Of a stretch of 64,000 nucleotides of DNA, positions 5,161-49,712 are shown piece by piece (within the stretch, counting starts at the first letter, position 1; each line of letters begins with the position of its first letter). The position numbers and the translations under genes were made by a program. The stretch is taken from contig CALYOH010000002.1 of the NCBI GenBank assembly GCA_945228905.1, forward strand, positions 3,706 to 67,705, read 5' to 3'. Source of the DNA: an uncultured Bacillales bacterium. Its GTDB lineage: Bacteria; Bacillota_I; Bacilli_A; RF39; UBA660. The notes under the pieces are model-generated. The model was not told the origin of the DNA and did not search any database. It saw only the letters and a list, made by a program, of their open reading frames with translations.

Positions 5161-5247
5161 AAAATCACCTACAACATATTATACAATTTAATATGCTTTA
5201 TCACAATATATATGATATACTTATTATTAGAAAGTGAGGAAGAAGAC

Positions 5248-6561
5248 ATGTTAAAACTAAAGAATATAGAAAAAAAACAATTCGATGAATATGTAAAAAA
5301 TCATAAGACTAAATCTCATTTTCTACAATCATTATCTTGGGGAGAATTTGCTAAAGTAAAAAAGAATTTAACTCCATATTATTTAGGACTAGTTAATGAT
5401 AAAGATGAGCTTGTAGGAGCAACCTTATTACTAGAAAAGAAACTACCTATGAATTATACTTACTTTTATGCTCCAAGAGGATTTGTTATAGATTATAAGA
5501 AAAAAGAAATTGTAAGAGAAATGACTAAAAAAGTAGTCGAATTTGCTAAAGGTAAAAAAGCTATATTTGTAAAGATAGATCCAGATATAATTAAAACTTC
5601 ATTTAATTATCTAAATGAAGAAACTAAGAATCCTGATGCAGATGAAATATTTAATACATTAAAAAGTTGTGGATTTAAACATCAAGGTTTTACAAAGAAC
5701 TTTGAAACAATGCAACCAAGATATACATTTAGAATAGATTTAGATCAAAGTTTAGAAGATATAGAAGAACACTTTTCTAAAACAACTAAACAACGTATTG
5801 CTAAATCATTAAAATTAGATACAGAAGTAGTTATAGGAGATCAAAGTGATATTAAAGAATTCTATCATTTAATGACACTTACAGAAAATAGAAAGGATTT
5901 TATTTCATATAATGAAGATTACTATGAAACACTATATGAAATATTTAATGGTAATAAAAATAGTAAAGCTACTTTATTCTTAGGAAAAGTACACATAAAT
6001 AAAACTATTAAAGCATTAGAAAAAAACTTAAAAGTAATAAATAATCAAATATCTATATTACCAATAGATAACTTAAGTAAAAGTGCGAAAGCTAAATTAA
6101 CAGAATTAACTAAACAAAAATATAATATTATTAAAGAAATAGATAAGTATAATGACTATAAAAAAGAATATGGAAATGATATTACATTAAGTGCTCATAT
6201 GATAATAGAGTATGGTGATAAAGCATGGGTTTTATATGCAAGTAACCATAATATATTAAGTGAGACATATGTAAACTATAATACATATTTTGAGCATCTA
6301 AAGTATTGTAAAAATCAAGGATTAAAAATATATGATCAATTTGGTACTATAGGTGACTTATCAAAAGATAATCCAAGGTTAGGACTACATGAATTTAAAA
6401 AGAAATTCGGTGGAGACTATGTAGAATTTTTAGGAGAATGGGATTATATAACTAATCATTTTATGTACTTTATATTTACTAAACTAGTACCAATCTATAG
6501 AAAACTAGTTAGAAGAAAAAGTAAGAAAGAATTAAAAGAAGAAATAAAAAAAGAAACATAA
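5248..6561 (+). CDS. FemAB-family peptidoglycan interpeptide-bridge aminoacyltransferase
   Basis: FLQSLSWGEFAK...YAPRGFVIDY plus a central coiled-coil insertion and a C-terminal LHEFKKKFGG, which is the typical FemX/FemA/MurM architecture. Start set at ATG 5248, preceded by AGTGAGGAAG. Confidence 0.8.
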   Translation: MLKLKNIEKKQFDEYVKNHKTKSHFLQSLSWGEFAKVKKNLTPYYLGLVNDKDELVGATLLLEKKLPMNYTYFYAPRGFVIDYKKKEIVREMTKKVVEFAKGKKAIFVKIDPDIIKTSFNYLNEETKNPDADEIFNTLKSCGFKHQGFTKNFETMQPRYTFRIDLDQSLEDIEEHFSKTTKQRIAKSLKLDTEVVIGDQSDIKEFYHLMTLTENRKDFISYNEDYYETLYEIFNGNKNSKATLFLGKVHINKTIKALEKNLKVINNQISILPIDNLSKSAKAKLTELTKQKYNIIKEIDKYNDYKKEYGNDITLSAHMIIEYGDKAWVLYASNHNILSETYVNYNTYFEHLKYCKNQGLKIYDQFGTIGDLSKDNPRLGLHEFKKKFGGDYVEFLGEWDYITNHFMYFIFTKLVPIYRKLVRRKSKKELKEEIKKET

Positions 6562-6579
6562 GAACTGGTTAGATAAATT

Positions 6580-7266
6580 TCTACACGAAATAGAAAGATC
6601 TAACTATGACTACAGCGATATTTTGTTGCTGTAGTTTTTAGTTTATTTTTGATTTTTATGTTATTATTATAGTTCTAATTTGATTTATAGTTCATCAATA
6701 TTTTTTAGATAATTGTTCTTGATGAAAACTTTAAATTGACCGTTGAGTGTTTCTATCCAAGGATTATGAGTACATGTATATGGGACAGACATACTTGGAA
6801 TAAGATTCATTTCAGCGGTTTTTGTGTTATATATTCCACTTTTATACATACCACCACGATCAGAATGTAATATTACATCATCTAGTTTATAGTCACTATT
6901 ATTTAATAAATTGGAATTTGTACGTATTTCTTTTTCCAGGAAAGTGTTGATTTTTTTAATATTTCATATCCCACATTATTTTCAATTATTTCTACTTTTT
7001 CAATCCTTTTTTATTTTTAAAGCAATATTCTTCGCTTTCTTGAATATACTCTCTAATCCACTTATTAATTGTATCTGTACATTTCTTTTTGCCTAAAACT
7101 ATTCTTTCTACTTCCACTTACTTTCATTTAAGATTTCTTATCAACTAAAACAATTTTTACAGCTTTAATTTTTTCTTCTCTAGTAAAATTTCTATATTCT
7201 CTTGTATACATATCCTCCATTAATTTTAACATATAAAAAATCTACACGCTTTTTATTTCGTGTAGA
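6580..7266 (-). mobile_element. Decayed IS3-family insertion sequence (internally deleted, multiple stops) bounded by imperfect inverted repeats
   Basis: The reverse strand reads an OrfA-like MYTREYRNFTREEKIKAVKIVL... and then an integrase-core tail ...DDVILHSDRGGMYKSGIYNTKTAEMNLIPSMSVPYTCTHNPWIETLNGQFKVF... broken by stops. TCTACACGAAATAGAAAG (6580-6597) matches the reverse complement of 7249-7266 at 17 of 18 positions. Confidence 0.6.
6610..6639 (+). terminator. Rho-independent terminator after the FemAB gene
   Basis: CTACAGC-gatattttgtt-GCTGTAG followed by TTTTT. Confidence 0.6.
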
Positions 7267-7267
7267 T
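7240..7267 (-). terminator. Rho-independent terminator of the WXG/hydrolase operon
   Basis: On the minus strand ATCTACACG-aaataaaaag-CGTGTAGAT is followed by TTTTTT, 40 nt downstream of the last WXG100 gene. Confidence 0.6.
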
Positions 7268-7308
7268 TTTCTTAAAATCACTTATTAAGCTTCTTTTTAT
7301 TTTTAAAA

Positions 7309-7608
7309 TTAGTTTTGTGTAACAACATTGCTTGCTGCAGCATCTGCATCTTCGTTAGCAGCAGTTACATTGTAAATATGATTTCTCATAGTTACTACTT
7401 TATTATAGAATACTTCATAATTCTTACGAATTTCGTTATAACGTTCTCTAGCATTGTCAGCACCTGTACTACCCCAGTTAGAGCCATATAAACTATTCAT
7501 AACTCCATCAATATCATTAAAAATACCCATAATATTTTCAGCATTATTCTTTACACCATCTGCATAACTTCTTGCTCCAGCATAATCTTTTTCTTCAAAC
7601 TCGTTCAT
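7309..7608 (-). CDS. WXG100-family (EsxA/ESAT-6-like) protein
   Basis: 99 aa with a helix-turn-helix composition and a central W-x-G (SNWGSTGADNARERY). SD AAGGAGG upstream. Confidence 0.75.
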   Translation of the reverse strand: MNEFEEKDYAGARSYADGVKNNAENIMGIFNDIDGVMNSLYGSNWGSTGADNARERYNEIRKNYEVFYNKVVTMRNHIYNVTAANEDADAAASNVVTQN

Positions 7609-7622
7609 AATTAACCTCCTTA

Positions 7623-7919
7623 CTAGAATAGACGTGCGCCAGCGTTGGCGTTATCTTCTTCTGTTTTATTTAATATATTTGCAGCAGCACTAATACTTTC
7701 ACCTAAATCATTTAATAAGATTTTAAAAGCATTGAAATTATTAGCTTGTTCTTCATATGAAGCACTAAATTCATTAGCAGACATACCTTTCCATAAAGTC
7801 ATAAGACCATCAATATTAGATCTTAAACTATTTAATTCATTTTCTAGATATTCTGCATTAGCAACAGTATCTTTACCATTAGTGTTCATTGCAGCTGTGT
7901 CAGCATGTAAACCAGACAT
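7623..7919 (-). CDS. WXG100-family (EsxA-like) protein
   Basis: 98 aa with a central LWKGMSANEF (W-x-G). The start was placed at the second ATG to give proper SD spacing (AGGAGG-N8-ATG). Confidence 0.75.
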   Translation of the reverse strand: MSGLHADTAAMNTNGKDTVANAEYLENELNSLRSNIDGLMTLWKGMSANEFSASYEEQANNFNAFKILLNDLGESISAAANILNKTEEDNANAGARLF

Positions 7920-8002
7920 AATCATAACCTCCTATCTATAAAAATTATATCATAATTTGTAAAATTGCATACTCTTTACACTAAAAATTACATTGTTTTA
8001 CA

Positions 8003-8290
8003 TTATATATTTAATGCGGCTAGCTCATCATCTAAACTTTGAATTGCTTGAGCAGCACTTTTAATAAACTCACCAATCTTTTGAGCTTCTTCAGCATTAG
8101 CTTGAGCTAAAGCAACTTGAGCATCACATTGCTTTGTAAAAGAAGTCTTAGCTGATCCATCCCATGAAGCCAAATCACTTGTTACAGTTCCTGAATAATT
8201 AGATACTGCTGATTGTAAATCAGAAGCCATTGAAACCAACTTATCTCCTGCTGAAATAACTTGTTCAACATCACAAACAAACTTTGCCAT
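8003..8290 (-). CDS. WXG100-family protein, related to the N-terminal domain of the two following large proteins
   Basis: 95 aa with SWDGSAKTSF (W-x-G). The N-terminus FVCDVEQVISAGDKL aligns by eye with LFLLDCDSVTSGASSL of the 8302 and 9456 proteins. Confidence 0.75.
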   Translation of the reverse strand: MAKFVCDVEQVISAGDKLVSMASDLQSAVSNYSGTVTSDLASWDGSAKTSFTKQCDAQVALAQANAEEAQKIGEFIKSAAQAIQSLDDELAALNI

Positions 8291-8301
8291 ATTTTTACCT
8301 C

Positions 8302-9444
8302 CTATACATTAGTATCATTAGAATATTTATTAAACATTTCATCTAATATAGATTTATTACTATTTTGTTTTTGTTTTTCTCTTTCAATTATTGCTCTAAA
8401 AGGATTTCTAGAAGTATTACTATCAGTAGTTGTACTATCTGTCGTTGTTGTTGTATTTGTTTTACTATCACCTGTACTATTATTAGTATTAGTATTAGTT
8501 GTAGTATCAGTAGTAGTATTTGTATTATTTTCACTTTTAGCGTTTGGTATTTCAGTCTTAGTAGTATCTTCTAATTTAACTTTACAATTATTAGTAATTT
8601 TCTTTATATCCTTTGTCAAATCAATAGTTATATTATTCTTATTAGCAGCTTTCCATTTTTCAGAATCTATAAAGAAGTTTACAGCATTTTTAGAAGCTTC
8701 TTCATCAGTAACTTGACCAATAACACAGTCAACACTTGTTCCATCTTCTCTAGTAAATGTAATAGCATCCCCAACTTTACCAAATGATTTATCACAAGAG
8801 ATAACATATCTATTACCTAACATTGCATAGCCATCTGTGTTATATTTAAATTTTTCATGTTCAAATAATTCTTTTTCTTCATCAGTTAATTTTTCTTTAT
8901 CTACTTCTTTACAAGTTATCTTCTTAACTTCTGTCTTAATTTCAACAGAATCTTTTCCTTCAAGAATTTGTCTTAATTGTTCTAACTCATCATGAGTTAA
9001 CTCAGATAGAGCAGTTGTTCCTACAGTAGTAGTTGCTCCAGTACCTCCACCACCAGAGTAGCCGCCACCGCCGCCACCTCCTGAGTAGTAGCCACCTCCG
9101 CCACCAGAAGTTCCTCCACCACCGGAAGTTCCTCCACTAGTACTTGTTCTTTTCTGAACTTCATTTTGTTTTTCTTCATTTTTACCATATATTAACTGAT
9201 TTTGAAGAGAAGTATGTGAACTTACTACTGTAGATACAATCTTAGAAGCATTTTGTATTTTTATAGAACATGCTTCAATATTATTAGCAATTGCAGACTT
9301 TGCAGATGCAAAATCAAAACCATCTTCGCAATTTGTATCATATCCACTAACAGAACTTTCAATATTTGAAATTTCTTTAGCAACTGAATCTAATGTAGAT
9401 CCAGTTGATGTTACAGAATCACAATCTAGCATAAATAATGCCAT
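8302..9444 (-). CDS. WXG100-like N-domain / Gly-Tyr linker / unassigned beta-rich module / Thr-Asn-rich tail protein (paralog of 9456-10718 lacking the peptidase domain)
   Basis: The N-terminal about 90 aa are homologous to the 9456 protein (MALFMLDCDSVTS...GFDFASAKS). Linker GGTSGGGGTSGGGGGYYSGGGGGGGYSGGGG. Module KFKYNTDGYAMLGNRYVISCDKSFGKVGDAITFTREDGTSVDCVIGQVTD. C-terminus NTNTTTDTTTNTNTNNSTGDSKTNTTTTTDSTTTD. No signal peptide. Confidence 0.7.
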   Translation of the reverse strand: MALFMLDCDSVTSTGSTLDSVAKEISNIESSVSGYDTNCEDGFDFASAKSAIANNIEACSIKIQNASKIVSTVVSSHTSLQNQLIYGKNEEKQNEVQKRTSTSGGTSGGGGTSGGGGGYYSGGGGGGGYSGGGGTGATTTVGTTALSELTHDELEQLRQILEGKDSVEIKTEVKKITCKEVDKEKLTDEEKELFEHEKFKYNTDGYAMLGNRYVISCDKSFGKVGDAITFTREDGTSVDCVIGQVTDEEASKNAVNFFIDSEKWKAANKNNITIDLTKDIKKITNNCKVKLEDTTKTEIPNAKSENNTNTTTDTTTNTNTNNSTGDSKTNTTTTTDSTTTDSNTSRNPFRAIIEREKQKQNSNKSILDEMFNKYSNDTNV

Positions 9445-9455
9445 ATTCATTCCTC

Positions 9456-10718
9456 CTATACACTTACTGTTTTATCATTACCTTTATATCTTAAAACCCA
9501 TGTCCAATTATTTCCTGTATTTGAAACACTAATTTCATTACCAGATGAATCTCCATTAGAACCATCATAATTAGAATGAGCTCCAACGTTCTTACCATCA
9601 CCTACATACATTTCAGTATGACCATTTCTTAATAATACGTCTCCTGGTTGTAATTGAACTTTTCCAAAGTCATAACATTCAAATCCAACTTTAGTAAATG
9701 CTGCTCTCATATTACCTGTATAAGATGCTCCAGCAGCTTTAACAGGTACACCTGCAGCTTCATATGCACTTATTACCAGTGAAGAACAGTCATAATTTGG
9801 ATTGCCCCATCTTGTTTGTTGTGAATATCCATGACTATTATCATTAGCAATATTTATTGCCCAATCCATAGCAGATTGAACAGACTTATTAGAAGATCTT
9901 AATTTACCAATATTAACAATCTTTGAAATTCCTCCTGCTAAACCTAAAGTTATATTATTAGCATTATCTTTCTTCCATGTTTTTTCATCTCCAAAGAATG
10001 AAACCTTATTCTTGTCTTTAGCATCTTTAGTAATTTGACCTATAATACAATCAACTTTAGTTCCATCTTCTCTAACAAAAGTTATTCTATCTCCAACTTC
10101 TCCAAATGATTCATCACATGAAATAATATATCTATTATCAAGCATTGCATATCCATCTGAATTATATTTAAATTTTTCATCATCAAACAATTCTTGAGCT
10201 TCTTTAGTTAGCTTAGTCTTATCATATGGTATACACTCTACTTCTTTAACTTCTGTTTTTATTTCTTTAACAGTATCTATTAGTCTTAATTGAGTTGCTC
10301 CTGCTGTAGTAGTAGCTGCTGCAGTGACATAGCCACCGCCTCCGCCGCCACCAGAGTAGCCGCCGCCACCACCTGAGTAGTCGCCCCCTCCACCACCGGA
10401 AGTTCCACCTCCAGTACTTGTACTTTCTTGAGCTTTCCTTTGCTCTTCTTCTTTTTTACCATATATTAATTTATTTTGAAGACTAATATGAGAAGTAACT
10501 ACAGAATTAACTAATTTAGATGAGTTTTGTACTTTTGTGGAACAAGCCTCTAAATTAGATGCAATTATAGATTTTGCAGATGCAAAATCAAAACCATCCT
10601 CGCAACTTGTATCATATCCACTTACAGAACTCTCTACATTAGATAATTCCTTTGCAATAGCATCTAAACTACTAGCACCTGAAGTCACACTATCACAATC
10701 AAGCAAAAATAAAGCCAT
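9456..10718 (-). CDS. WXG100-like N-domain fused to an unassigned beta-rich module and a C-terminal NlpC/P60-clan (Amidase_5/CHAP-like) peptidoglycan hydrolase
   Basis: N-terminus MALFLLDCDSVTS...GFDFASAKS. Gly/Tyr linker. C-terminus SHGYSQQTRWGNPNYDCSSLV (catalytic Cys context)...GDVLLRNGHTEMYVG (His)...GAH. No signal peptide. SD AGGAGG upstream. Confidence 0.8.
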   Translation of the reverse strand: MALFLLDCDSVTSGASSLDAIAKELSNVESSVSGYDTSCEDGFDFASAKSIIASNLEACSTKVQNSSKLVNSVVTSHISLQNKLIYGKKEEEQRKAQESTSTGGGTSGGGGGDYSGGGGGYSGGGGGGGYVTAAATTTAGATQLRLIDTVKEIKTEVKEVECIPYDKTKLTKEAQELFDDEKFKYNSDGYAMLDNRYIISCDESFGEVGDRITFVREDGTKVDCIIGQITKDAKDKNKVSFFGDEKTWKKDNANNITLGLAGGISKIVNIGKLRSSNKSVQSAMDWAINIANDNSHGYSQQTRWGNPNYDCSSLVISAYEAAGVPVKAAGASYTGNMRAAFTKVGFECYDFGKVQLQPGDVLLRNGHTEMYVGDGKNVGAHSNYDGSNGDSSGNEISVSNTGNNWTWVLRYKGNDKTVSV

Positions 10719-10730
10719 ATTAATTACCTC

Positions 10731-11552
10731 CTACTTTGGATCCCATTGATCTAATCCATATTGTTCAACTAATTTTATAAGATTTTCTGTATAAGACAAA
10801 CTAGTTGCATAACCAGCTTCCCTAACCGCTTTACATGCTTCCTTATAGTCTTGAGCCTCAATTACAGCCCTATATCTATCATTTGTCAATAATACAGCGT
10901 GATCTTCAATAGAATCAGATAATGAATCATAATCTCTAAATTTTGCAGTTATTTGGACATAACTTCCATCAGCATTTTGTTCTGATGTTCTACATTCTTG
11001 TGTTTTTCCTGTCCAACTATCTCCAGCTTTAATACCAAACACATTATTTCCAATTGAATGTTTTCCCCATCCACTTTCTAGTATAGCTTGAGCTAAAGTT
11101 AATGAAGGTAAAACACCATATTTATTATAAGCTTCAACTGCACCTTCTGCTATCGAATTAATGAAGTCTAATTGATAACCAGATAAGTTTGTAGGATTTA
11201 AATAATCAGAAACAGCACCTGCTCTAATAACTTTACCATTTGTACCTTTTAATTCAAGAATAACATTTGAAGCACTTTTATCCCCTGCTTTATAAGCATT
11301 AGATACATCTATTAGATATTGATTAATAGTTGTAAAATTATCAGTCATTATAGCCATAGACTCATTCATAGCATTAAGTGCTTCTACACAACTATCTGCA
11401 CAAGGTCCCATAAATAATGTATCATTATCAATAATAGTTTTAACATCATTATACGAAACTTGAGCAGTATCAATACTTGCTTTTAATTTATTAGTTGTAG
11501 TAATAGCATCACTAAATATACCATAATCACTTACTGAATATTTTTCATTCAT
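10731..11552 (-). CDS. WXG/LXG-like helical N-domain fused to a GH73 N-acetylglucosaminidase
   Basis: The N-terminal about 100 aa (MNEKYSVSDYGIFSDAI...LFMGPCADSCVEAL...) form a helical hairpin with F-M-G at the turn. C-terminus LAQAILESGWGKHSIGNNVFGIK...GYATSLSYTENL carries the canonical GH73 motifs. No signal peptide. Confidence 0.8.
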   Translation of the reverse strand: MNEKYSVSDYGIFSDAITTTNKLKASIDTAQVSYNDVKTIIDNDTLFMGPCADSCVEALNAMNESMAIMTDNFTTINQYLIDVSNAYKAGDKSASNVILELKGTNGKVIRAGAVSDYLNPTNLSGYQLDFINSIAEGAVEAYNKYGVLPSLTLAQAILESGWGKHSIGNNVFGIKAGDSWTGKTQECRTSEQNADGSYVQITAKFRDYDSLSDSIEDHAVLLTNDRYRAVIEAQDYKEACKAVREAGYATSLSYTENLIKLVEQYGLDQWDPK

Positions 11553-11565
11553 CTAATCACACCTT

Positions 11566-12387
11566 TTAGGTATTGTATTTATTATAAATGTTACTTGCAT
11601 AACCCTCTCTTGTACTTGTATTAGCATCTGCAGATTTCTCATAAACATTATGGAATTTAGCAGCAGCTTGTGAAGCAGATGTAGCATTTTTCATATCACT
11701 AGATAAATCTGCTCCCATCTCTTGAATCATAAAATCAAGTTGCCCACCTAAACTATCTATATTTTCAGGACCTAAATAATCATATAAAGCAGCTTTTCTT
11801 GTATGATATGTCCATTGAGCAATACCAAATCCACGAGAATCATTTGCGAAATCTTCTCTAGAAATAGTACCATTCTTTATACCAGCAACATAATCAGCAT
11901 CTTCATAACCCATTCCATTTTGAACATTATCTGCTCTAAAATTAGATTCTTGTTGAAGATTACCCATTATACCAGCAGCTCCTTGTGGAGAAAAACCTTT
12001 ACTAACTAAGTAATTATAAATTTGTTCCTCATTACTGTTACCAGTTAAATTTCCACCTTCACCAACACGTAATTGAGTTCCATTAATTGATAACACTTTA
12101 TTAGCTGCAGCAGTATCACCACTTTTATATGCAGTAGCAACTTCAGCTAAATAATTACTTATAGTAGTGAAATTATCATTAATTGTACTCATTCCACTAT
12201 CTAATGAACTAACTGCTTCTACACAACTATCTGCACAAGGTCCCATAAACACTGCATCATTATCAATAATGCCTTTTACATCATTTACTGTAGTCTTTGC
12301 AGAATCAACACTGACCTTTAATTTATTAGTTGTTGATATAGCATCACTAAAAATACCATAATCACTTATTGAATAATTCTCATTCAT
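11566..12387 (-). CDS. WXG/LXG-like helical N-domain fused to a phage-tail-lysozyme-like (GNxxxES family) peptidoglycan hydrolase
   Basis: The N-terminus is paralogous to the 10731 protein (MNENYSISDYGIFSDAIS...VFMGPCADSCVEAV). C-terminus AAGIMGNLQQESNF...GFGIAQWTYHTRK...QLDFMIQEM matches the Phage_lysozyme2-type signature from memory. 1-nt TAATG overlap with the upstream gene. Confidence 0.7.
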   Translation of the reverse strand: MNENYSISDYGIFSDAISTTNKLKVSVDSAKTTVNDVKGIIDNDAVFMGPCADSCVEAVSSLDSGMSTINDNFTTISNYLAEVATAYKSGDTAAANKVLSINGTQLRVGEGGNLTGNSNEEQIYNYLVSKGFSPQGAAGIMGNLQQESNFRADNVQNGMGYEDADYVAGIKNGTISREDFANDSRGFGIAQWTYHTRKAALYDYLGPENIDSLGGQLDFMIQEMGADLSSDMKNATSASQAAAKFHNVYEKSADANTSTREGYASNIYNKYNT

Positions 12388-13256
12388 TATTTATCACCAT
12401 TATATCTAAGAACCCAAGTCCAACTATTACCTGTATTAGAAACTCCAACTTCTGAACCAGAAGAGTCTCCATCAACACCATCTTTATTTCCATGAGCTCC
12501 AACGTTTTTACCATCACCAATATACATTTCAGTGTGACCATCTCTAAGTAAAACATCTCCAGGTTGTAAATCTACACTACCAAAGTCATAACAATCAAAA
12601 CCTGTTTGAGTAAATGCACTTCTCATATTACCTGTATATGTAGCTCCATTTGTTTTTACCGGAATACCAGCTGCTTCATAAGCACTAATAACAAATGAAG
12701 AGCAGTCATAATTTGGATTACCCCATCTTGTTTGTTGTGAATATCCATGTGAATCATCTGCTGCTGTAGCCATGGCCCAATCAATAGCACCTTGTACACC
12801 CGCACTTGATCCCGCAGATTGAGTAACCTTTCCACTTGCATTAACACTTGGATTCATAGAAGAAGCCTCTAATTTAACACTAGTAACAGAACTTAAAGCC
12901 TGCTCTATTTGTCCTTTTAAATTACTAAGTTCTGATTCATACGTACTAATTTTAGATGAAAACTCACTAGTACTTTCTCCTGTAGCAGATGCAGTATTAT
13001 AATTAGATCTTGCTATATTTAAATTATCTTTTGTAGTTTTATATCGTTCATATAAGTCACATGCATTTGCAAATGAACTCATTTGCCCTTTTATTGCCCC
13101 AGAAAATTCAGAAGAAAAACTTGTAGCTTTAGATTCAAAGTTATCATGAGAATTTCCCTTCCAAGAGCTTGAAGTTTCACTAACTGCACTATCAAATTTT
13201 GATAAAGCTGAAGCAATAGAACTAGCATCAGAATTAACTGTACCACTACTAACCAT
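12387..13256 (-). CDS. WXG100/LXG-like N-domain (about 140 aa) fused to an NlpC/P60-clan (Amidase_5/CHAP-like) peptidoglycan hydrolase
   Basis: N-terminus SSWKGNSHDNFESKA (W-x-G) followed by a long helix. The C-terminal domain is highly similar to that of 9456-10718 (SHGYSQQTRWGNPNYDCSSFV...GHTEMYIG...GAH). Start set at ATG 13256 (AGGAGG-N7-ATG). No signal peptide. Confidence 0.8.
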   Translation of the reverse strand: MVSSGTVNSDASSIASALSKFDSAVSETSSSWKGNSHDNFESKATSFSSEFSGAIKGQMSSFANACDLYERYKTTKDNLNIARSNYNTASATGESTSEFSSKISTYESELSNLKGQIEQALSSVTSVKLEASSMNPSVNASGKVTQSAGSSAGVQGAIDWAMATAADDSHGYSQQTRWGNPNYDCSSFVISAYEAAGIPVKTNGATYTGNMRSAFTQTGFDCYDFGSVDLQPGDVLLRDGHTEMYIGDGKNVGAHGNKDGVDGDSSGSEVGVSNTGNSWTWVLRYNGDK

Positions 13257-13309
13257 ACACATGCCTCCTATTTTCATATACTATATAATCATTTTACCAT
13301 TTATATAAG

Positions 13310-13318
13310 ATTATAACA
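13310..13318 (-). promoter_or_regulatory. Candidate extended -10 promoter of the hydrolase/WXG operon
   Basis: The minus strand reads TGTTATAAT (TGn-TATAAT) about 50 nt upstream of the first gene. The -35 is weak. Confidence 0.35.
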
Positions 13319-13367
13319 AATTATTTTATTATATTTTTTTAATTTGACATAAAAAAGAAATAGTAAA

Positions 13368-15020
13368 CTATTTCTTCATAATTATTCTTTTAATACTATT
13401 AATTATATTTTTACCAAATACTTCATTAGTTATTCCACTAAAATGAATATAAATAAAGTATACTATTGCTCCTACTAATCCATAGAAAGCTATTATTCCT
13501 AAATTAACAATTCTAGTAGATGAACAAGTAGGAATAAATAATCCAATAACTGTAAGTACTAAAATCATTAATATAGATCCACATAATATTTCTATAATGA
13601 ATTTAACTATATTTTCAAATAATACTTTATATTTAATCTTTAATATTAAAATACAACAAATAAATGATATTAAATATCCAATTATACTAGCAGTAATAAC
13701 TCCATAATATGGAGGTAAATTAATAAGCATAAACACTCTTAATAAACTAATATTTAATAATAATTTAATTAGTACACCAATGACTAAACTAATAAATACA
13801 GCTTTATAATCTTTTAGTGTTTGTAATACAGTAACAACAGTAGTAAATAAACCAGTAAATAAACCAACAAATATATAATAACTTAATACACTTGCTCCAT
13901 ATAAACTTTCTCCATAAAATAAAGTCCAAATAGCATCAGATAAGAAACTAATTCCAAAAGAAATAGGAACAGTTAAATATAATAATATACTTAAAGCCTG
14001 AACTATTTTTCTATGTATTTGTTTTTCTTCTTTTTTAACAATACTCTCAGTTAAATTAGGTATTAAACTAACAACAACACCAGTTGATATAGAAAGAACT
14101 ATCATATTAAATTTAGCTCCCCATGTTGATAAAATACTATATACATTTTCAGCATCACTTGCACTATATTTAGCATAATCAACTAATCCTCTAACTACAG
14201 TAAACATATCAATATAATTATATAGTGACTTAAATATATCAATCATTATAAATGGAAAAGCATAAATAACTATCTTTTTTATAATTGCTTTATCACTTAT
14301 ATATGGTTCATTAACATCTCTTGCTTTAGTATCAAATTTAGATTTATTCTTAAATAATTTATCAACAAGATAAATATAAGATACTAATGCTCCTAAAGTT
14401 GCTCCAAAAAGAGCTACTCCTACAGAAGTACTTAAATCTAAATGTAAATATTTAATACTTACTAAACTACCAAATATAATAATTAAAACTCTCACTAATT
14501 GTTCTAATACTTGGGATATTGATGGAGCAGACATAAATCTATGTCCCTCAAAATATCCTCTATAAATACTAAGTACTGGTACTACTAATATTGCTGTTCC
14601 TATTACTCTAATAACTAAAGTAATATCTTCTATACTATTACCACCTACTACGTCACCCATAACAGCTTTAGCAAGTAATGGAGCAAATATAGTAATGATT
14701 ATAAATGAAATAATACCAAGTACTAACGCAATTCTTTTTCCTAAAACAAACGCTCTTTTTTTAATATTATAATATCCCAAAGTTTGATATTCAGATACTA
14801 TTTTACTAATTGCTAGAGGTATACCTGCAGAAGATAAAGACATAAAAAGCAAATAGATAGTATAAGCATATCCATATAAAGCACCGCCAGCATCACCAAT
14901 AATAGCATGAAATGGAATAACATATAATATACCCAATATCTTGGCAATAACTATACCAATAGTTGTAATAAGAGCTCCATTAACAAATGAAGTTTTTCTC
15001 ATAGTAATATCTTTCTTCAT
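13368..15020 (-). CDS. MOP-superfamily polysaccharide/lipid II flippase (MurJ/SpoVB/YtgP-like)
   Basis: 550 aa with about 14 predicted TM segments. N-terminus SFVNGALITTIGIVIAKILGILYVIPF is typical of this family. Confidence 0.7.
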   Translation of the reverse strand: MKKDITMRKTSFVNGALITTIGIVIAKILGILYVIPFHAIIGDAGGALYGYAYTIYLLFMSLSSAGIPLAISKIVSEYQTLGYYNIKKRAFVLGKRIALVLGIISFIIITIFAPLLAKAVMGDVVGGNSIEDITLVIRVIGTAILVVPVLSIYRGYFEGHRFMSAPSISQVLEQLVRVLIIIFGSLVSIKYLHLDLSTSVGVALFGATLGALVSYIYLVDKLFKNKSKFDTKARDVNEPYISDKAIIKKIVIYAFPFIMIDIFKSLYNYIDMFTVVRGLVDYAKYSASDAENVYSILSTWGAKFNMIVLSISTGVVVSLIPNLTESIVKKEEKQIHRKIVQALSILLYLTVPISFGISFLSDAIWTLFYGESLYGASVLSYYIFVGLFTGLFTTVVTVLQTLKDYKAVFISLVIGVLIKLLLNISLLRVFMLINLPPYYGVITASIIGYLISFICCILILKIKYKVLFENIVKFIIEILCGSILMILVLTVIGLFIPTCSSTRIVNLGIIAFYGLVGAIVYFIYIHFSGITNEVFGKNIINSIKRIIMKK

Positions 15021-15078: not shown

Positions 15079-16056
15079 TTATTTTTGTGAAGGAATTGAT
15101 TGTGGTACAATAGCATCTACATGTTTTAAATATGGTTCAAAATCAAGTTCATATATAGAATCACATATTTTAAAATAATAGAATACAGTCAAACTACTAT
15201 AATCTTTATCACATACAGCTTTTTCTAAAGCATCATGATAAGCTTTTCTTTCTTTTTTTACTATATAAACTGGTGGTAAATTTCTTTCTTTAAACATTAG
15301 ATTTAATAATGTTCTAAAAGTTCTCTTATTACCATCTCCAAATGGTTGTAATGCAATTAAATCAGCAACAGTTCTAACACAATAATCTATATAATGGAAA
15401 ATGTTGGGATCTGCTTTTGCTTCTTCATATTCTCTTACTTTATCAGGTTGTAAATAACCATTAAATATTCTACAAGCTTCAGCAGCAGATGGAACTTCTA
15501 TATTAAAGTCCCTCATTATAACCGGACCTTTTCTTAAAGAACCACCAAAACTCACACCTTCAGTTACCCTAGCCATTTCTCTTGCTTCTCTAAGTTTCTT
15601 TAAATTTCTTTCTTTTTTTGCTTCTTCATATAATCTTTCTGCTTCTGATCTTTGATCTTCAACTTCTTTTCTCTTCTTTTCATCAAGTGGTTTATATAAT
15701 AACGAATGTATATGTAATGAATTAACAAATATGTTGAAATAATCCTTATCAATATCAAAGCTAGTAATATAGTCATATGCTAGAGCTACTCCTTTTCTTT
15801 CCTCAGGAGTATCATTCTTTTCAACTAATGCTTCATTAGCAATATACTTACGTTTAAAGTTTAAAATCATATCAACATAATTAGGTCTAATCTTTCTATA
15901 ATATTGGTCAATTAATGTTTTACAAATAGATACATCATGCTCATTCTTATAAACATTTTTATGAGATTTAGAAATATTATATAGTTCAAAAGCAGTTAAT
16001 AATAAGTCTATTGTATCTTGATCAATTTCAGCATTATAAATATTATTTTCATTCAT
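15079..16056 (-). CDS. Fic/Doc-family protein with degenerate active-site motif
   Basis: The C-terminal region reads ALQPFGDGNKRTFRTLLN, which corresponds to Hx[FY]x[DN][GA]N[GK]R but has Gln in place of the catalytic His. Start set at the internal ATG after GAGGGGGG. Confidence 0.6.
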   Translation of the reverse strand: MNENNIYNAEIDQDTIDLLLTAFELYNISKSHKNVYKNEHDVSICKTLIDQYYRKIRPNYVDMILNFKRKYIANEALVEKNDTPEERKGVALAYDYITSFDIDKDYFNIFVNSLHIHSLLYKPLDEKKRKEVEDQRSEAERLYEEAKKERNLKKLREAREMARVTEGVSFGGSLRKGPVIMRDFNIEVPSAAEACRIFNGYLQPDKVREYEEAKADPNIFHYIDYCVRTVADLIALQPFGDGNKRTFRTLLNLMFKERNLPPVYIVKKERKAYHDALEKAVCDKDYSSLTVFYYFKICDSIYELDFEPYLKHVDAIVPQSIPSQK

Positions 16057-16136
16057 ACTATAACCCCCCTCATAGTTGTTGTACATTATACCATAAAATA
16101 ACCAAAAAGTCAAAAAATAAAGAGTATTTATACTCC

Positions 16137-37071: not shown

Positions 37072-39309
37072 TTATTTTCTTCTTTTAGCTCTTTTTGATT
37101 TAGAATATATTTTTACATCTCTATTTATTGAATCAGCATCTCTAGTTTTATTCTCTTTAACTTTTTCTACTACCTCAAAATTAATAGTATGAGCTTTCTT
37201 AGAAGCATTAGATACCTTTAATTTTAATTTATCACCAATATAATAATTTGGTTGTCCATCTAAAGATACAAGAGAATAAGAATCTTGTGAATGAGTATAA
37301 TCACCTTTAAGATCTCTTACACTAACATAACCTTCTACAAGATAATCATCTAATTCTATTGATAAACCACTATTAGATACACCAACAACAGTTCCTTCAA
37401 ATTCAGTTCCAATTTCATGTTCCATATATCCAGCACTTTCCATTTTAAATACTTCCTCTTCGCAGTCATTAGCAACTCTTTCAAAATGAGAAGTTTGTGC
37501 ACAAATATCCGGTAATTTCTTTTTCCATTTAAATACATTCTTAGTAACTTCTTTTGGATTCTTATTAAATACACAATCCCATAAAATTCTTTGAACAGTT
37601 AAATCTGCATATCTTCTAACAGGAGAAGTAAAATGACAATAGTACTCTTTAGATAATCCATAGTGTCCAATATTATCAGTACTATATTTAGCCCTAGACA
37701 TACAAGAAATAGCTTTAACTGTTAAGAAATTAGATAGTGTTCCATGTCCTGAAATATGTTGAATTAATTCTTGGAATGCTTTTTTATTACCTGCAAGTTC
37801 TTCAGCATCATATTTAGTAAATGGTAAATTAACAGCTTCTAATAAATTCAAGAATCCTTGAATCTTCTCTTCATTAGGAGAAGCATGAACTCTATGTACA
37901 CAAGGAAGTCCTCTTCTAGATAATTCCTTATCTACACATTCATTAGCTGCAAGCATGAACTCTTCAATTAAGTTTTCAGCTACATCTTGAGTTCTAACTC
38001 CTAAAGCTGAAACATCACCGTCTTCATCATATTTAAGTTTTGGTTCTGGTCTATTAAATTCAGTTGCTCCATTAAGAATTCTCTTTTTTCTTAATGCAAG
38101 AGCAAGTTTATTCATATTACGTAATGTATTAGCATAAGGAGCATAATCAGGATCAACATTACCTGTCTTTAATATTTCGTTAACCTTATCATAGTTCATC
38201 TTTTTTCTAGATTTAATAACAGATGGAACTATATTATAATTAATAATTTTACCATCAGGAGAAAACTCCATCTTAACAGAAATAGTAAGTCTTTCTACTC
38301 CCTCATTTAAAGATCCAATACCATTAGATATTTTATGTGGAAACATAGGAAATACTTTTCCGCCTAAATAATAACTATTACATTTTCTAAAAGCATCTTT
38401 ATCTAGAGGAGATCCCTCTGGTATTAATGTTGCAATATCAGTAATACTTACATTTAATTCATAATTACCTTTAGAATTTACTTTTAATCCAATGGCATCA
38501 TCCATATCTTTTGTATCGATACCATCAATAGTAAATATCTCTTCATCAGTTAAATCTTCTCTACCAATTTTATCAACAGGGCGAACTTCATCTTGAATAT
38601 ATTCTAATTGTTTCATTGATTCTTCAGTAAATTCAGTATAAATTCCTGCTTTAAAAGCTTCCCAATAAATATCCTCATCAGGATCATCTTTATGACCAAA
38701 AGTTCTAACAACTTCTCCAATATAATAGTTAGGAGCAGTTTGATCAACTAAAGCAACTGCAACTTTAGCCCCTTCAATAGCATTAGTACCTAAACTAATA
38801 ACAATATTATTCTTCTTTTTATCAGCAGGTTTTAAATAGTATTGTGTTCCTTCTCTATAAACTTCTCCAGGAACATAATCTAATTTTCTTTCAAGTACTT
38901 CAATAATCTTAGCAGGTCCCTTACTCGGACAATCAGCTAAAACTATATCATCATTTATAGCACATTTATTATTTTCAGTAGTAACTTTAAACTCTTCATT
39001 TTTAACAATAAGCTTACCATCTTTATCAGTATAACTTCTTGTTACAAAAACATTTCCTCCACCATCTCTATTTCCATGGAATCTACCCACTACAAAACTA
39101 GTCTTAGAAAATAAAGTATAATTACCATTTGGCGTCTTATAAAAATTAAACTCTTTACAACCGCTTTCAAGTATTTCAATTATCTCCGCTTTCTGATCAT
39201 TAGATAATTCAGTTACATATTCAGCAAGAATCTCAATTTTTTCAAATATCTTTTCTATAGATAATGGCTTTTTTGATTTTTTTAAAACATATTCAACATA
39301 TTCTCTCAT
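37072..39309 (-). CDS. RNB-family 3'-5' exoribonuclease (RNase II/R paralog) with C-terminal S1 domain and basic tail
   Basis: IDGIDTKDMDDAI and HFTSPVRRYADL RNB motifs, an S1-like EFEGTVVGVSNSGLSIEL, and a C-terminal KSKRAKRRK. Confidence 0.8.
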   Translation of the reverse strand: MREYVEYVLKKSKKPLSIEKIFEKIEILAEYVTELSNDQKAEIIEILESGCKEFNFYKTPNGNYTLFSKTSFVVGRFHGNRDGGGNVFVTRSYTDKDGKLIVKNEEFKVTTENNKCAINDDIVLADCPSKGPAKIIEVLERKLDYVPGEVYREGTQYYLKPADKKKNNIVISLGTNAIEGAKVAVALVDQTAPNYYIGEVVRTFGHKDDPDEDIYWEAFKAGIYTEFTEESMKQLEYIQDEVRPVDKIGREDLTDEEIFTIDGIDTKDMDDAIGLKVNSKGNYELNVSITDIATLIPEGSPLDKDAFRKCNSYYLGGKVFPMFPHKISNGIGSLNEGVERLTISVKMEFSPDGKIINYNIVPSVIKSRKKMNYDKVNEILKTGNVDPDYAPYANTLRNMNKLALALRKKRILNGATEFNRPEPKLKYDEDGDVSALGVRTQDVAENLIEEFMLAANECVDKELSRRGLPCVHRVHASPNEEKIQGFLNLLEAVNLPFTKYDAEELAGNKKAFQELIQHISGHGTLSNFLTVKAISCMSRAKYSTDNIGHYGLSKEYYCHFTSPVRRYADLTVQRILWDCVFNKNPKEVTKNVFKWKKKLPDICAQTSHFERVANDCEEEVFKMESAGYMEHEIGTEFEGTVVGVSNSGLSIELDDYLVEGYVSVRDLKGDYTHSQDSYSLVSLDGQPNYYIGDKLKLKVSNASKKAHTINFEVVEKVKENKTRDADSINRDVKIYSKSKRAKRRK

Positions 39310-39378
39310 AAAGCACCCCCACAATTATTATTAAATCATAAAAATTAAAAAAATACAAAAAAATAGAGCAAATTTGCT

Positions 39379-40401
39379 CTATTGTATTCTACGTACTGAA
39401 AGTAATGATGTACCAGATCCATTTATCCAGTAATCAACATTATCTAACACAACTCCAGTACCAGAGTTAGCTGCATGAATCATCATACCATTTCCTACAT
39501 ATAATGCAGAGTGAGTAACATTACCATATCCATATCCCCAACTTAATATATCTCCAGGTTGTGCATCAGCATAACTAACACCAACACCATCATATATTTG
39601 AGTATATGAACTTCTACTTACATATTTACCCACACATGAATATACATATTGAACAAAACCACTACAGTCAAATCCATAAGGACCATTAGATCCACTAATA
39701 TATGGCATTCCAAGTAATGAATAAGCAATTGATACAACATCATTACCAACAGGATTTGCTGGAACATTATAATTAATACCATAAATATATTGTGGAGTTG
39801 GTTGAACAACTTCTAATGTAAATGTAAAAGTAGAACTGTTTCCAGATTTATCAACAGCATTAACAGAAATTTCATGATTACCTACACTATTAATATCTTC
39901 ATTGTAATTAATACTATAATAATTAACAGAATCTTCCTTTATTTCTTCACTAGAAATATTAATATCTCCATCAATTTCATCCAATACTGATTCTATATTT
40001 TCTTCAGGATTATAATTATCACCCTGAGTAATAGTCACCTTTTCTTCTTTTACTTTAATTACAGGTGCAACAGAATCTACTACAGTAATAACAATAGGAA
40101 CTTCTTTTACTACATTATCCTTTTGTACTTCAAGTATGACTTCTTGTTCACCAATTTTATTAACATCTATATCTTGTATAACAGATATAATATTACCTTC
40201 AACCTCTTCAATAAATTCTTTTACGTTGTAATTCGCACTTCCGTATTCTACAGAAGGAGTATCTTTAACTACAACTTTTATGCTTTGATAAGTATAGTAA
40301 TTATGATATACATAGCAGCTAACTAGCATAATAAATGATAACATCATCAACCCTGAGAATCTCTTTATTCTTAGCTTCGACGACCCATCAGTTGATTTCA
40401 T
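39379..40401 (-). CDS. NlpC/P60 (C40) cell-wall peptidase with Ig-like repeats
   Basis: TM/signal anchor, two repeat domains, and a C-terminal YGFDCSGFVQYVY...HSALYVG...IHA (Cys-His-His). Confidence 0.8.
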   Translation of the reverse strand: MKSTDGSSKLRIKRFSGLMMLSFIMLVSCYVYHNYYTYQSIKVVVKDTPSVEYGSANYNVKEFIEEVEGNIISVIQDIDVNKIGEQEVILEVQKDNVVKEVPIVITVVDSVAPVIKVKEEKVTITQGDNYNPEENIESVLDEIDGDINISSEEIKEDSVNYYSINYNEDINSVGNHEISVNAVDKSGNSSTFTFTLEVVQPTPQYIYGINYNVPANPVGNDVVSIAYSLLGMPYISGSNGPYGFDCSGFVQYVYSCVGKYVSRSSYTQIYDGVGVSYADAQPGDILSWGYGYGNVTHSALYVGNGMMIHAANSGTGVVLDNVDYWINGSGTSLLSVRRIQ

Positions 40402-40427
40402 AAAATTTCCTCCCACGAATGCAGTAT

Positions 40428-47593: not shown

Positions 47594-47673
47594 TAGTATC
47601 ACCCTCTATCTTAAATTATACATTAAAAACAAAGATATAACTAGTCTTTTACAAAATAAAAAGGACCCAAGTC

Positions 47674-47990: not shown

Positions 47991-48299
47991 CTATTTAACC
48001 AGCCTATCTCTTTGTTCAATAACACTGGTATCTACAGTTTCATTAGCAGCTGAGATATTCTCTTTAACTGCATTAACTAAATTGTCTGTATTAACGGCTT
48101 TTCCATATACATTTGAGAGTTCACTTCTAAATTCACCAATCTTACCTGAAAGTCCTTTTAAGTAATTTAAATATTCAAAATTACTTGGAACAGTCATTGC
48201 ACAATACTCTTGTGCACTAGATAAATGTGATAATGAATCCTCAACCATAGGTTTAATTTTAGATGAAATACCATCATTAGGATAAATTAATTTACTCAT
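47991..48299 (-). CDS. Small alpha-helical T7SS-associated protein (no W-x-G)
   Basis: 102 aa with helical heptad-like composition. 1-nt overlap with the upstream WXG-like gene. Family not recognised. Confidence 0.5.
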   Translation of the reverse strand: MSKLIYPNDGISSKIKPMVEDSLSHLSSAQEYCAMTVPSNFEYLNYLKGLSGKIGEFRSELSNVYGKAVNTDNLVNAVKENISAANETVDTSVIEQRDRLVK

Positions 48300-48583
48300 T
48301 ATTCTTCTCCTTGCTTAGCTTTTGTTACAGTAGTATCTATCATATTAGCACTCTCTGTAATTGCTTTAGAAAAGGACTTAATTCCATCACCAACATTCAT
48401 TAGCTCATTCTTATCAAGTAAAACCATATTTACATAGTCTTTTGCTCTTCCACCTGTCCATTCTTTAGTATCAGGTAAATTAACAAACTTATTAAACAAT
48501 TCGGTAATCTTTCCTTGATATTCTGCTGCTAATGAGTTGATAGCTGCCGCGTGATTACGCATTTCTTCAGTATTTATCTTCAT
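48299..48583 (-). CDS. WXG100-like protein
   Basis: 94 aa with a central KEWTGGRAKDY (W-x-G). No gap to the upstream gene. Confidence 0.65.
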   Translation of the reverse strand: MKINTEEMRNHAAAINSLAAEYQGKITELFNKFVNLPDTKEWTGGRAKDYVNMVLLDKNELMNVGDGIKSFSKAITESANMIDTTVTKAKQGEE

Positions 48584-48892: not shown

Positions 48893-48915
48893 AACTACAC
48901 CACCCTTTTATTATA

Positions 48916-49377: not shown

Positions 49378-49389
49378 TAATTTCTCCTC

Positions 49390-49701: not shown

Positions 49702-49712
49702 TAAATCACCTC

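Follow-up and report, generated by a model that had tools for sequence, protein, structure and literature searches.

An operon of eight genes in an uncultured Bacillales bacterium encodes peptidoglycan hydrolases that begin with WXG100-type helical hairpins and have no Sec-type N-terminus, which suggests, at the level of sequence, that a type VII secretion system (T7SS) exports wall-degrading enzymes in Firmicutes. The operon occupies positions 7309 to 13256, on the minus strand, of the 64,000-nucleotide (nt) stretch that we analyzed (contig CALYOH010000002.1 of assembly GCA_945228905.1, positions 3,706 to 67,705), hereafter the window. Its first five products, P1 to P5, carry the hairpins, and the last three, P6 to P8, are small WXG100 proteins. 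Reading P1 to P5 as T7SS substrates is most economical because they are enzymes that have to get to the wall yet lack Sec signals, because their hairpins are paralogous to co-encoded Esx proteins, and because the operon includes an EsxA-type protein and, in some genomes, directly adjoins essC. On these grounds we consider it quite probable that P1 to P5 are type VII secretion substrates. The broader proposition, that this lineage swapped the Sec signals on its wall hydrolases for WXG100 hairpins and that the toolkit leaves via a minimal type VII system without inhibitor-type immunity, we judge to stand slightly better than even.

Domains and N-termini of the operon products

The eight closely spaced genes, their coordinates, and their gaps, as described in an earlier sequence-only reading of this DNA, were all reproduced by an open reading frame (ORF) check. 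From P1 to P8 the intergenic distances are -1 (a TAATG overlap of 1 nt), 13, 12, 5, 11, 77, and 14 nt, and an AGGAGG ribosome-binding site lies ahead of every gene; the P1 start (ATG at 13256) is backed by this site and by homolog alignment. P1 (289 amino acids [aa], 12387 to 13256) joins a WXG100-like N-region (approximately residues 1 to 140, with the sequence SSWKGNS) to an NlpC/P60-ELLD endopeptidase domain, with Pfam matches to ELLD (5.5e-10), NLPC_P60 (1.3e-5), and, weakly, WXG100 (6.8e-5). P2 (273 aa, 11566 to 12387) and P3 (273 aa, 10731 to 11552) share a second type of N-terminal hairpin. In P2 the hairpin spans residues 11 to 103, with a turn at F47-M48-G49-P50 and the motif Y87-x-x-x-D91, and precedes a phage-tail-lysozyme domain (Phage_lysozyme2, 3.8e-31), the matches of this protein to EspC and WXG100 being weak. 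The N-domain of P3 aligns to that of P2 with the invariant residues kept and precedes a GH73 N-acetylglucosaminidase domain (Glucosaminidase, 5e-33). P4 (420 aa, 9456 to 10718) consists of a third type of hairpin (residues 8 to 98), a disordered linker rich in Gly, Ser, and Tyr (99 to 149), a middle domain with the double-psi beta-barrel (DPBB) fold (150 to 295), and an NlpC/P60-ELLD domain (308 to 414; Pfam ELLD/NlpC_P60, E value of 1e-10). P5 (382 aa, 8302 to 9450) has the same N-domain, a Gly-rich linker, a DPBB middle domain, and a tail rich in Thr and Asn; it is alignable to P4 across the N-domain and the middle domain only, and no enzyme domain was matched in Pfam or NCBIfam. The hydrolase types named in the sequence-only reading, two NlpC/P60, one GH73, and one phage-tail-lysozyme, thus agree with Pfam at E values of 5e-10 to 5e-33, while its count of five hydrolases has to be reduced to four recognizable ones plus P5, a DPBB protein without a catalytic-domain match.

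The three genes that close the operon are WXG100 genes, as had been proposed, and their products cover the Pfam WXG100 model end to end. P6 (95 aa, 8003 to 8290, motif SWDG) scores 8.8e-6 and 26.3 bits, marginally below the 27.3 cutoff; its first 34 residues resemble the N-domain of P4 and P5, and it matches P7 by hhalign with 97% probability. P7 (100 aa, 7623 to 7925, with ATG 7919 the likely true start; motif LWKG) is of the EsxA type and exceeds both the Pfam cutoff (8.7e-10, 39.2 bits) and that of TIGR03930 (46.6 bits against 44.85). P8 (99 aa, 7309 to 7608, motif NWGS) passes the Pfam cutoff (2.9e-7, 31.1 bits) and is a standalone relative of the N-domain of P2 and P3.

Homolog searches and alignments place the N-termini of P1 to P5 in three families of helical hairpins of ~100 aa, which we call carriers: A (P4 and P5), B (P2 and P3), and C (P1). 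In family C, W39-x-G41 is invariant and is followed by a conserved helix with the pattern FAxAC..Y..Y and then by a third helix; across 24 homologs of P1, both the W-x-G and the catalytic Cys and His are invariant. Family B is defined by D-Y-G-x-F near the N-terminus, the turn F47-x-G49-P50, and Y87-x-x-x-D91-x-x-A94 at the end of helix 2, all invariant or nearly so, with D91 invariant and Y87 nearly invariant. The pattern Y-x-x-x-D/E is known as a T7SS export signal. W-x-G recurs in P6, P7, and P8, and P2 and P3 carry the invariant F-x-G-P instead. Family A opens with M-x-x-F-x-L-D/E...SGYDTSCEDGFDF.

AlphaFold2 models of P2 and P4, built with family alignments, show the helix-turn-helix expected of WXG100 proteins, with helices at 11 to 41 and 50 to 103 in P2 (pLDDT of 80 to 90) and at 8 to 33 and 45 to 98 in P4 (pLDDT of 72 to 82). 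In the P4 model the hairpin is followed by the disordered Gly-rich linker, the beta-rich middle domain, and the NlpC/P60 domain. When the full multidomain models were compared to the Protein Data Bank (PDB) with Foldseek, the catalytic part of P2 matched the phi29 gp13 lysozyme (3csq, E value of 1e-4) and that of P4 the bacterial peptidase 7v6t, and the P4 middle domain matched the DPBB proteins cerato-platanin, MltA, expansin, and p97-N. The structure search of the N-domains that the sequence-only reading had proposed gave Esx and PE/PPE proteins as the nearest helical matches: Thermomonospora curvata EsxA for the P2 hairpin, at a target-normalized TM-score of 0.78, and PE5-PPE4, GBS1074, and Staphylococcus aureus EsxA for that of P4. 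These similarities between modeled folds back an Esx-type assignment, if not decisively. Because helical hairpins match easily by chance, we sought specificity at the sequence level.

Such specificity is apparent within the operon and the window. By hhalign, family C aligns to P6 (83% probability) and P7 (70%) with the W-x-G motifs in register, family B aligns to P8 end to end (68%, E value of 5e-5), and the first 34 residues of family A are 38% identical to P6. Family B and P8 also have in common an MNE..DY start and an xxGDxAAxN end. As an internal control, hidden Markov models (HMMs) of the three carriers were run against all 88 ORFs of at least 60 aa in the window, and only small WXG100-like proteins, from the operon and from a cluster close to essC, ranked after the self-matches. 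Family C retrieved P7 (3e-7) and P6 (4e-5), then two small ORFs at 49390 to 50096; family A retrieved P6 (6e-5); and family B retrieved a 153-aa ORF at 48916 to 49377 (3e-6, with Y-x-S-G-D in common) and P8 (4e-3). Together with the motifs and the models of P2 and P4, this ranking supports the proposal that the N-termini are WXG100-type hairpins.

The proposal that they are LXG-like did not survive. None of P1 to P5 matches PF04740 (LXG) at an E value of 0.1 or below, and the hairpins are of WXG100 size, so LXG membership was discarded; the five proteins are best filed as a WXG100-fusion substrate class outside LXG. Even to the WXG100 model the Pfam scores of P1 (23.5 bits) and P2 (15.1 bits) lie under the 27.3 cutoff, and P3 to P5 have no match, while certain homologs of the P1 and P2 families bear matches to PF06013 or PF10824.

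As the sequence-only reading had noted, Sec-type N-termini are missing from all five proteins. The maximum Kyte-Doolittle(12) value within the first 45 aa is at most 1.34, compared to 2.46 to 3.80 for control proteins of the same window (a membrane-anchored NlpC/P60 protein, a lipoprotein, MurJ, and SecG). No hydrophobic stretch was found in any of 44 carrier-bearing homologs, whereas 21 of 61 carrier-less homologs of the catalytic domains from other taxa have Sec-like N-termini, among them the products of neighboring GH73 and NlpC/P60 genes of Ruminococcus flavefaciens. Approximately 28 of the 61, from Clostridia, open straight with the catalytic domain, as endolysins do. The window itself encodes an NlpC/P60 protein of 345 aa (39379 to 40416, minus strand) whose N-terminus is a membrane anchor or signal sequence, so this genome holds at least one Sec-type wall hydrolase.

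A family B profile searched against 1.84 billion representative proteins retrieved 227 clusters, in which the match nearly always covers residues 1 to ~100, either as standalone proteins of 100 aa or as the N-terminus of proteins of 250 to 380 aa. Pfam domains in 83 fused representatives were NlpC/P60 (12), Phage_lysozyme2 (11), GH73 glucosaminidase (9), CHAP (8), Peptidase_C39_2 (7), ELLD (4), Peptidase_S9 (4), Peptidase_M23 (3), Amidase_5 (3), Peptidase_M15_4 (2), Hydrolase_2 (2), Peptidase_C70 (2), Esterase (2), and NAGPA (1); seven family B members have a T7SS_ESX_EspC match and five a WXG100 match. No nuclease, NADase, deaminase, or pore-former was seen by Pfam among the 83. The cargo consists almost only of wall hydrolases, from at least 10 catalytic families, and on this census the family B carrier is dedicated almost entirely to wall-acting enzymes.

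Conserved locus and type VII genes

To place the operon among its relatives, domains were mapped over 99 fetched loci, 40 of which hold carrier-bearing ORFs. All 40 come from uncultured Bacilli labeled Bacillales, Mollicutes, or Erysipelotrichaceae, the source lineage being the Genome Taxonomy Database (GTDB) genus UBA3789 and its relatives; UBA3789 has been reported from rumen and livestock-gut studies. The closest relative is locus L003, from the metagenome-assembled genome "Bacillales bacterium UBA3789" (92% identity for P1, ~90% for the flanks). A recurrent order is evident: MurJ, a P1-type gene, one to five more fusions, P6-P7-P8, sometimes extra family B fusions, then one or two FemAB genes on the opposite strand and TrmB. 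The full P6-P7-P8 triad is present in 23 of the 40 loci, and the contig ends first in nearly all others; MurJ is present in 19 and FemAB in 17. As the arrangement is repeated in ~40 loci from other genomes and metagenomes, it exceeds chance.

The locus keeps its synteny, directly downstream of murJ and beside femAB, over ~20 species-level genomes. A P1 ortholog heads the operon in nearly every genome, at 41 to 58% identity compared to 53 to 65% for MurJ. P7 is ~70% identical across species and 99% identical to its counterpart in L003, and P8 is 71 to 88% identical across species. Catalytic domains diverge like the flanks (89 to 96% versus 90 to 92% identity) and the carriers slightly faster; evolutionary rate does not tell a weapon from an autolysin. 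Carriers and catalytic domains combine differently from one species to the next, with family C or B joined to GH73, B or A to NlpC/P60, and A to CHAP, and the number of hydrolase genes ranges from two to at least six, with one gene more in L003 than in the window. A few loci encode hydrolases with differing helical N-regions of ~130 to 210 aa, also without hydrophobic stretches: GH73 plus NlpC/P60 proteins of 539 to 545 aa (L029, 8804 to 10423; L034, 8852 to 10489) and a 270-aa NlpC/P60 protein (L018, 9965 to 10777). These N-regions may be extra carrier families outside the three profiles.

The essC locus that had been placed ~40 kb away encodes a bona fide EssC (1,524 aa, 52445 to 57019, minus strand), a T7SS ATPase with forkhead-associated (FHA) and FtsK/SpoIIIE domains, 39 kb from the operon. 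It scores 945.6 bits against TIGR03928 (cutoff, 778.4), and Pfam finds FtsK_SpoIIIE (5.8e-47) and FHA. A survey of neighborhoods, suggested in the same reading, shows essC directly adjoining the operon in two loci, L010 and L091, where a 1,542-aa EssC begins ~100 nt past P8 and small ORFs come next. In the window, an 84-aa ORF (52191 to 52445, minus strand) overlaps the essC stop. By position and size alone it could correspond to EsaB/YukD; it has no Pfam, NCBIfam, or PDB sequence match. Six small helical ORFs of 94 to 153 aa lie downstream of the essC region (47991 to 50096, minus strand), four of them with weak WXG100- or ESAT-6-like matches. The 153-aa ORF among them (48916 to 49377, minus strand) has a Gly-rich, mildly hydrophobic N-terminal stretch of 50 aa, then a WXG100/LXG-like hairpin ending in Y-Q-S-G-D. 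It matches LXG weakly, and, self-matches aside, none of the 88 ORFs matches the P2/P3 carrier better (E value of 2.6e-6). The cluster is split by two plus-strand genes, one for a GNAT protein and one for a 470-aa ORF (50252 to 51664) with one predicted transmembrane segment (at approximately residues 77 to 95) and a zinc-protease-like HEMGH (HExxH) motif; Pfam gave no match for the latter. Among the window ORFs scanned, EssC and the small WXG100 proteins are the only recognizable type VII parts. The essC neighborhood looks minimal and may represent a T7SS variant beyond the published a-to-j scheme. T7SS variants reduced to EssC, EsaB, and EsxA with added lineage-specific parts have been described (PMC11217815), and wall hydrolases are not mentioned there as substrates.

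At the far end of the operon, and convergent with it, lies a gene for a FemAB-family peptidyltransferase (5212 to 6561, plus strand; Pfam FemAB, 4.7e-74). In relatives FemAB stands immediately downstream of the operon in 17 loci, often 10 to 20 nt from the last gene and sometimes duplicated, and it is 82 to 85% identical across species. FemABX-like proteins are classical immunity factors of secreted peptidoglycan hydrolases (Zif for zoocin A, Epr for lysostaphin). The statement of the sequence-only reading that the operon has no immunity genes is therefore only partly sustained: the operon has no plausible ORF for an inhibitor-type immunity protein on either strand, while a gene of the classical bacteriolysin immunity type adjoins it. 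FemAB is a candidate for cross-bridge-based self-protection or a mere housekeeping neighbor. Six loci (L009, L011, L012, L015, L016, and L096) have two tandem FemAB genes together with extra family B hydrolases downstream of P8, a coincidence that could reflect common ancestry or a link between copy number and hydrolase load. In the window, FemAB and P8 are separated by ~750 bp of mostly noncoding DNA (6562 to 7308), compared to 10 to 20 nt in relatives. This segment may be an insertion sequence (IS) remnant; a stretch 'NPWIETLNGQFK' in its 54-aa ORF (6685 to 6849) presumably resembles the C terminus of an IS3-family transposase.

Signals and neighbors complete the picture. A likely terminator for the operon (7235 to 7267, minus strand) was found by reading the sequence, as a hairpin with a 9-bp stem, a 10-nt loop, and a T-run; the automated hairpin scan was limited to loops of up to 8 nt and hence missed it. 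Upstream of P1, a promoter-like site (13291 to 13319, minus strand) consists of TTGTTA, a 17-nt spacer, and TG-TAAAAT, a match to consensus only. The operon has a GC content of 0.32 to 0.33, slightly above that of its flanks (~0.26 to 0.29). Immediately upstream is the gene for the MurJ/polysaccharide-flippase-like protein (13368 to 15020, minus strand; Pfam Polysacc_synt, 1.6e-28; MurJ, 8.4e-10), and next to it a gene for a Fic-domain protein (15079 to 16113, minus strand), which is kept just upstream of murJ in L001, L003, L011, and L015 as part of the same syntenic block. Elsewhere in the window, the genes for two RNase R/RNB-family paralogs (37072 to 39324 and 45482 to 47602, minus strand) are less than 10 kb apart.

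Export, target, and self-protection

We propose that the ~100-aa hairpin on each of P1 to P5 stands in for a Sec signal peptide, with three carrier families that would each be paralogous to one small WXG100 protein. By analogy to EsxA/EsxB dimers, LXG-Lap, and EsaD-EsxBCD, each carrier probably joins at least one of P6 to P8 in a helical bundle, which the EssC ATPase, we infer, would recognize and export; Y-x-x-x-D in P2 and P3 may be a further export motif. Outside the membrane, the C-terminal domains would cleave complementary peptidoglycan bonds with a set comprising NlpC/P60 endopeptidases, a lysozyme-like muramidase, a GH73 glucosaminidase, and an MltA/expansin-like DPBB module. As to the target, we lean slightly toward the walls of neighboring bacteria, on which the set would act as a bacteriolytic cocktail. 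The producer would be protected by its own wall chemistry rather than by inhibitor proteins, the adjacent FemAB cross-bridge transferases being the candidate.

Several observations weigh against export by a T7SS. Family A has GFDF and lacks W-x-G, and Y-x-x-x-D is absent from P1 and from P4 and P5. The Foldseek matches of the hairpins to Esx and PE/PPE proteins reach target-normalized TM-scores of 0.67 to 0.78, yet with E values of ~1 to 3, and similarity between helical hairpins counts as weak evidence. Profiles of families A and B retrieved no Esx proteins from PDB sequences; they matched the coronavirus spike HR1, reovirus sigma-1, and other coiled coils, the HR1 heptad repeats at an E value of 1.7e-6 for family B. 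We dismissed kinship to these viral proteins as an artefact of composition and coiled coils, and the HR1 match indicates that scores for carrier sequences, those from hhalign included, are inflated by composition and heptad bias. EssA, EssB, and EsaA were not among the window ORFs scanned with Pfam and NCBIfam, many other large ORFs lying outside the scan, so the machine is incompletely defined.

In a rival account, the N-domains are generic coiled coils for oligomerization or regulation and the enzymes are released by lysis, in vesicles, or through a holin-like route, as endolysins are. The catalytic domains do belong to endolysin and tail-lysin families (ELLD, Phage_lysozyme2, and Amidase_5), and the Clostridia homologs that start directly at the catalytic domain, as well as the weak, composition-inflated hairpin scores, fit such an account. 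It is unlikely, given that no holin or phage genes lie in or around the chromosomally syntenic operon, that W-x-G and Y-x-x-x-D are conserved, that the N-domains specifically match the WXG100 proteins of the genome, and that the WXG100 triad goes with them consistently where the contig allows, essC being adjacent in two loci. Searched against 2.9 million viral contigs (IMG/VR), moreover, the three carrier families have no relative. That check, which the sequence-only reading had posed as a way to refute itself through homologs in prophage lysis cassettes, found none, and full-length homologs adjoin the WXG100 triad nearly always where the contig permits. Domestication of lysis or wall-penetration enzymes from a prophage or conjugative element is barely credible: the resemblance of the catalytic domains to phage proteins in fold and sequence and the slightly raised GC content of the operon are outweighed by a gene order from murJ to femAB/trmB that is the same across many species and by the lack of integrase, capsid, tail, or type IV secretion genes nearby. 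A prophage or integrative and conjugative element origin was rejected on this synteny and on three negative scans of viral contigs. Taken together, the chance that P1 to P5 are not T7SS substrates at all appears low.

If P1 to P5 are exported by a T7SS, the question becomes whose wall they cut. In favor of antagonism are the shuffling of carriers and catalytic domains and the variable gene number; enzyme types of the kind able to lyse from outside; a FemAB adjacency that, by analogy, matches the zoocin A/Zif and lysostaphin/Epr pattern; the fact that every characterized large T7SSb substrate is an antibacterial toxin; and the use of an ESX-4-secreted wall glycosidase as a weapon in mycobacteria (PMC13444075). 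Against it, the locus is a conserved syntenic part of the chromosomal core beside murJ, the catalytic domains diverge at housekeeping rates, the operon has no inhibitor-type immunity gene, and FemAB is conserved to a degree expected of an essential housekeeping enzyme, not of a variable immunity factor. The same features suit T7SS-exported housekeeping autolysins that act on the producer's own wall in growth, daughter-cell separation, and turnover, the T7SS here taking over the role that Sec/SecA2 has for autolysins elsewhere. A P1 ortholog at the head of the operon almost everywhere and a cargo confined to wall enzymes would also be expected of such a system. Autolysins, for their part, are hard to square with gene number and domain combinations that vary even among close relatives (the extra gene of L003), with a Pfam scan that found no LysM, SH3b, or CWB repeats, the wall-binding elements typical of resident autolysins, with a searched literature that yielded no T7SS-dependent autolysin, and with the membrane-anchored Sec-type NlpC/P60 protein of the same window. 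A third role, in which P1, if not all of the hydrolases, opens the peptidoglycan locally for T7SS assembly or the release of EsxA-type proteins, draws on the conserved place of P1 at the head of an operon that includes EsxA-like P7 and, in L010 and L091, adjoins essC, and on EssH as a precedent for a T7SSb that requires a dedicated hydrolase. Five proteins with four bond specificities exceed what a conduit needs, gene number varies, and EssH is Sec-exported and has no WXG100 domain, all of which makes this role improbable. We hold the full statement, export by the T7SS together with antagonism by bacteriolytic effectors, tentatively and at somewhat less than an even chance, and regard exported autolysins as a real, if minority, possibility.

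How the thick wall is crossed and whether a T7SS handles wall-acting enzymes are open questions in the T7SS literature, where the Firmicute system is viewed as carrying small Esx proteins together with LXG toxins, most of which strike within the target cell and all of which are paired with immunity proteins. Were P1 to P5 to be T7SS substrates, the substrate range of T7SSb-like systems would widen to peptidoglycan, and Clostridia and this lineage would offer a natural comparison of Sec and T7SS export of the same catalytic domains. As weapons, they would supply modular lytic enzymes that attack Gram-positive walls from the outside and would bring FemAB-type wall-chemistry immunity into a secretion-system setting; as autolysins, they would make the T7SS a housekeeping pathway of UBA3789, a genus of uncultured bacteria abundant in rumen and gut. 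If directed at the producer's own wall, such export would constitute the first autolysin pathway to depend on a T7SS; if directed at neighbors, it would be the first Bacillota T7SS bacteriolytic cocktail with wall-chemistry self-protection.

Comparison with known systems

The sequence-only reading had supposed that neither a lytic cocktail nor an autolysin set exported by a T7SS had been described. For Bacillota this appears to hold: a literature search for a T7SS-exported peptidoglycan hydrolase gave only the Sec-dependent EssH and, at streptococcal T7SS loci, CHAP genes that have not been studied; no T7SSb-exported peptidoglycan hydrolase is listed in reviews that run to 2026; and Tox-NlpC/P60 and Tox-Glucosaminidase were assigned to type VI secretion systems (T6SS) and PVC (Photorhabdus virulence cassette) systems, not to T7SS (Zhang et al. 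2012). Beyond Bacillota the supposition needs qualifying, as an ESX-4-secreted wall glycosidase, EatA, was published in 2026 and NlpC/P60 T7SS toxins are predicted in Mycobacteriales (PMC13444075). These actinobacterial cases are the nearest precedents, and NlpC/P60 genes also occur in the ESX-4/SigM regulon.

S. aureus EssH, a CHAP hydrolase needed for T7SSb secretion, is likewise a peptidoglycan hydrolase tied to a T7SSb locus. It differs in that it carries a Sec signal peptide, lacks a WXG100 domain, and is a single enzyme that serves the machine rather than a substrate. Its gene is divergent from esxA, whereas the genes here, which encode other catalytic domains, form one operon with esx genes. 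Lysostaphin/Epr-Lif, zoocin A/Zif, and millericin B resemble the present case as peptidoglycan hydrolases with an adjacent FemAB-family gene, which there is protective through cross-bridges. Those bacteriolysins are M23 endopeptidases, Sec-exported and equipped with wall-targeting domains, and the strongly conserved FemAB protein here may have a housekeeping role only.

Mixed sets of peptidoglycan-cutting effectors are familiar from the T6SS, which delivers Tae amidases and Tge glycoside hydrolases against neighbors, with Tai and Tgi immunity. The T6SS is a contractile Gram-negative injection machine that delivers its effectors to the periplasm, and each effector is invariably paired with a cognate immunity protein located there. 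An analogue for exported autolysins is found in Listeria, in which p60 (NlpC/P60) and NamA are SecA2-dependent autolysins, leaving by a noncanonical route that serves largely housekeeping wall hydrolases; SecA2 substrates retain signal peptides, and neither WXG100 proteins nor EssC is involved.

Closer in architecture are the LXG toxins with Lap partners, such as TelA to TelD of Streptococcus intermedius, which are exported by a T7SSb. Common to both are a helical N-domain belonging to the WXG superfamily, genes for small helical partners within the operon, swappable C-terminal effectors, and the link to EssC, and TelC, a lipid II phosphatase, likewise hits the cell envelope from outside the membrane. 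The LXG domain is ~200 aa long, in contrast to carriers here that are of WXG100 size and do not match PF04740; the cargo here is peptidoglycan hydrolases, with neither an adjacent inhibitor-type immunity gene nor a DUF4176 chaperone, and the three partners are highly conserved and common to several substrates. In this last respect the operon recalls S. aureus EsaD, a large substrate encoded together with the three small WXG100 or WXG100-like partners EsxB, EsxC, and EsxD (PMC10653861). EsaD is a nuclease that acts in the cytoplasm and comes with EsaG immunity and the EsaE chaperone, whereas the cargo here acts on the wall and neither gene is present. The mycobacterial EatA comes nearest in kind, in that a helical T7SS N-domain is fused to a wall-degrading enzyme and small helical proteins, TapA1 and TapA2, serve as partners (PMC13444075). 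EatA is a GH183 endo-D-arabinanase secreted by ESX-4, an actinobacterial T7SSa, with arabinogalactan as its target and an adjacent immunity lipoprotein, EatI; the operon described here, without an inhibitor gene, belongs to a Bacillota lineage with an EssC-type system and combines several enzyme classes directed at peptidoglycan.

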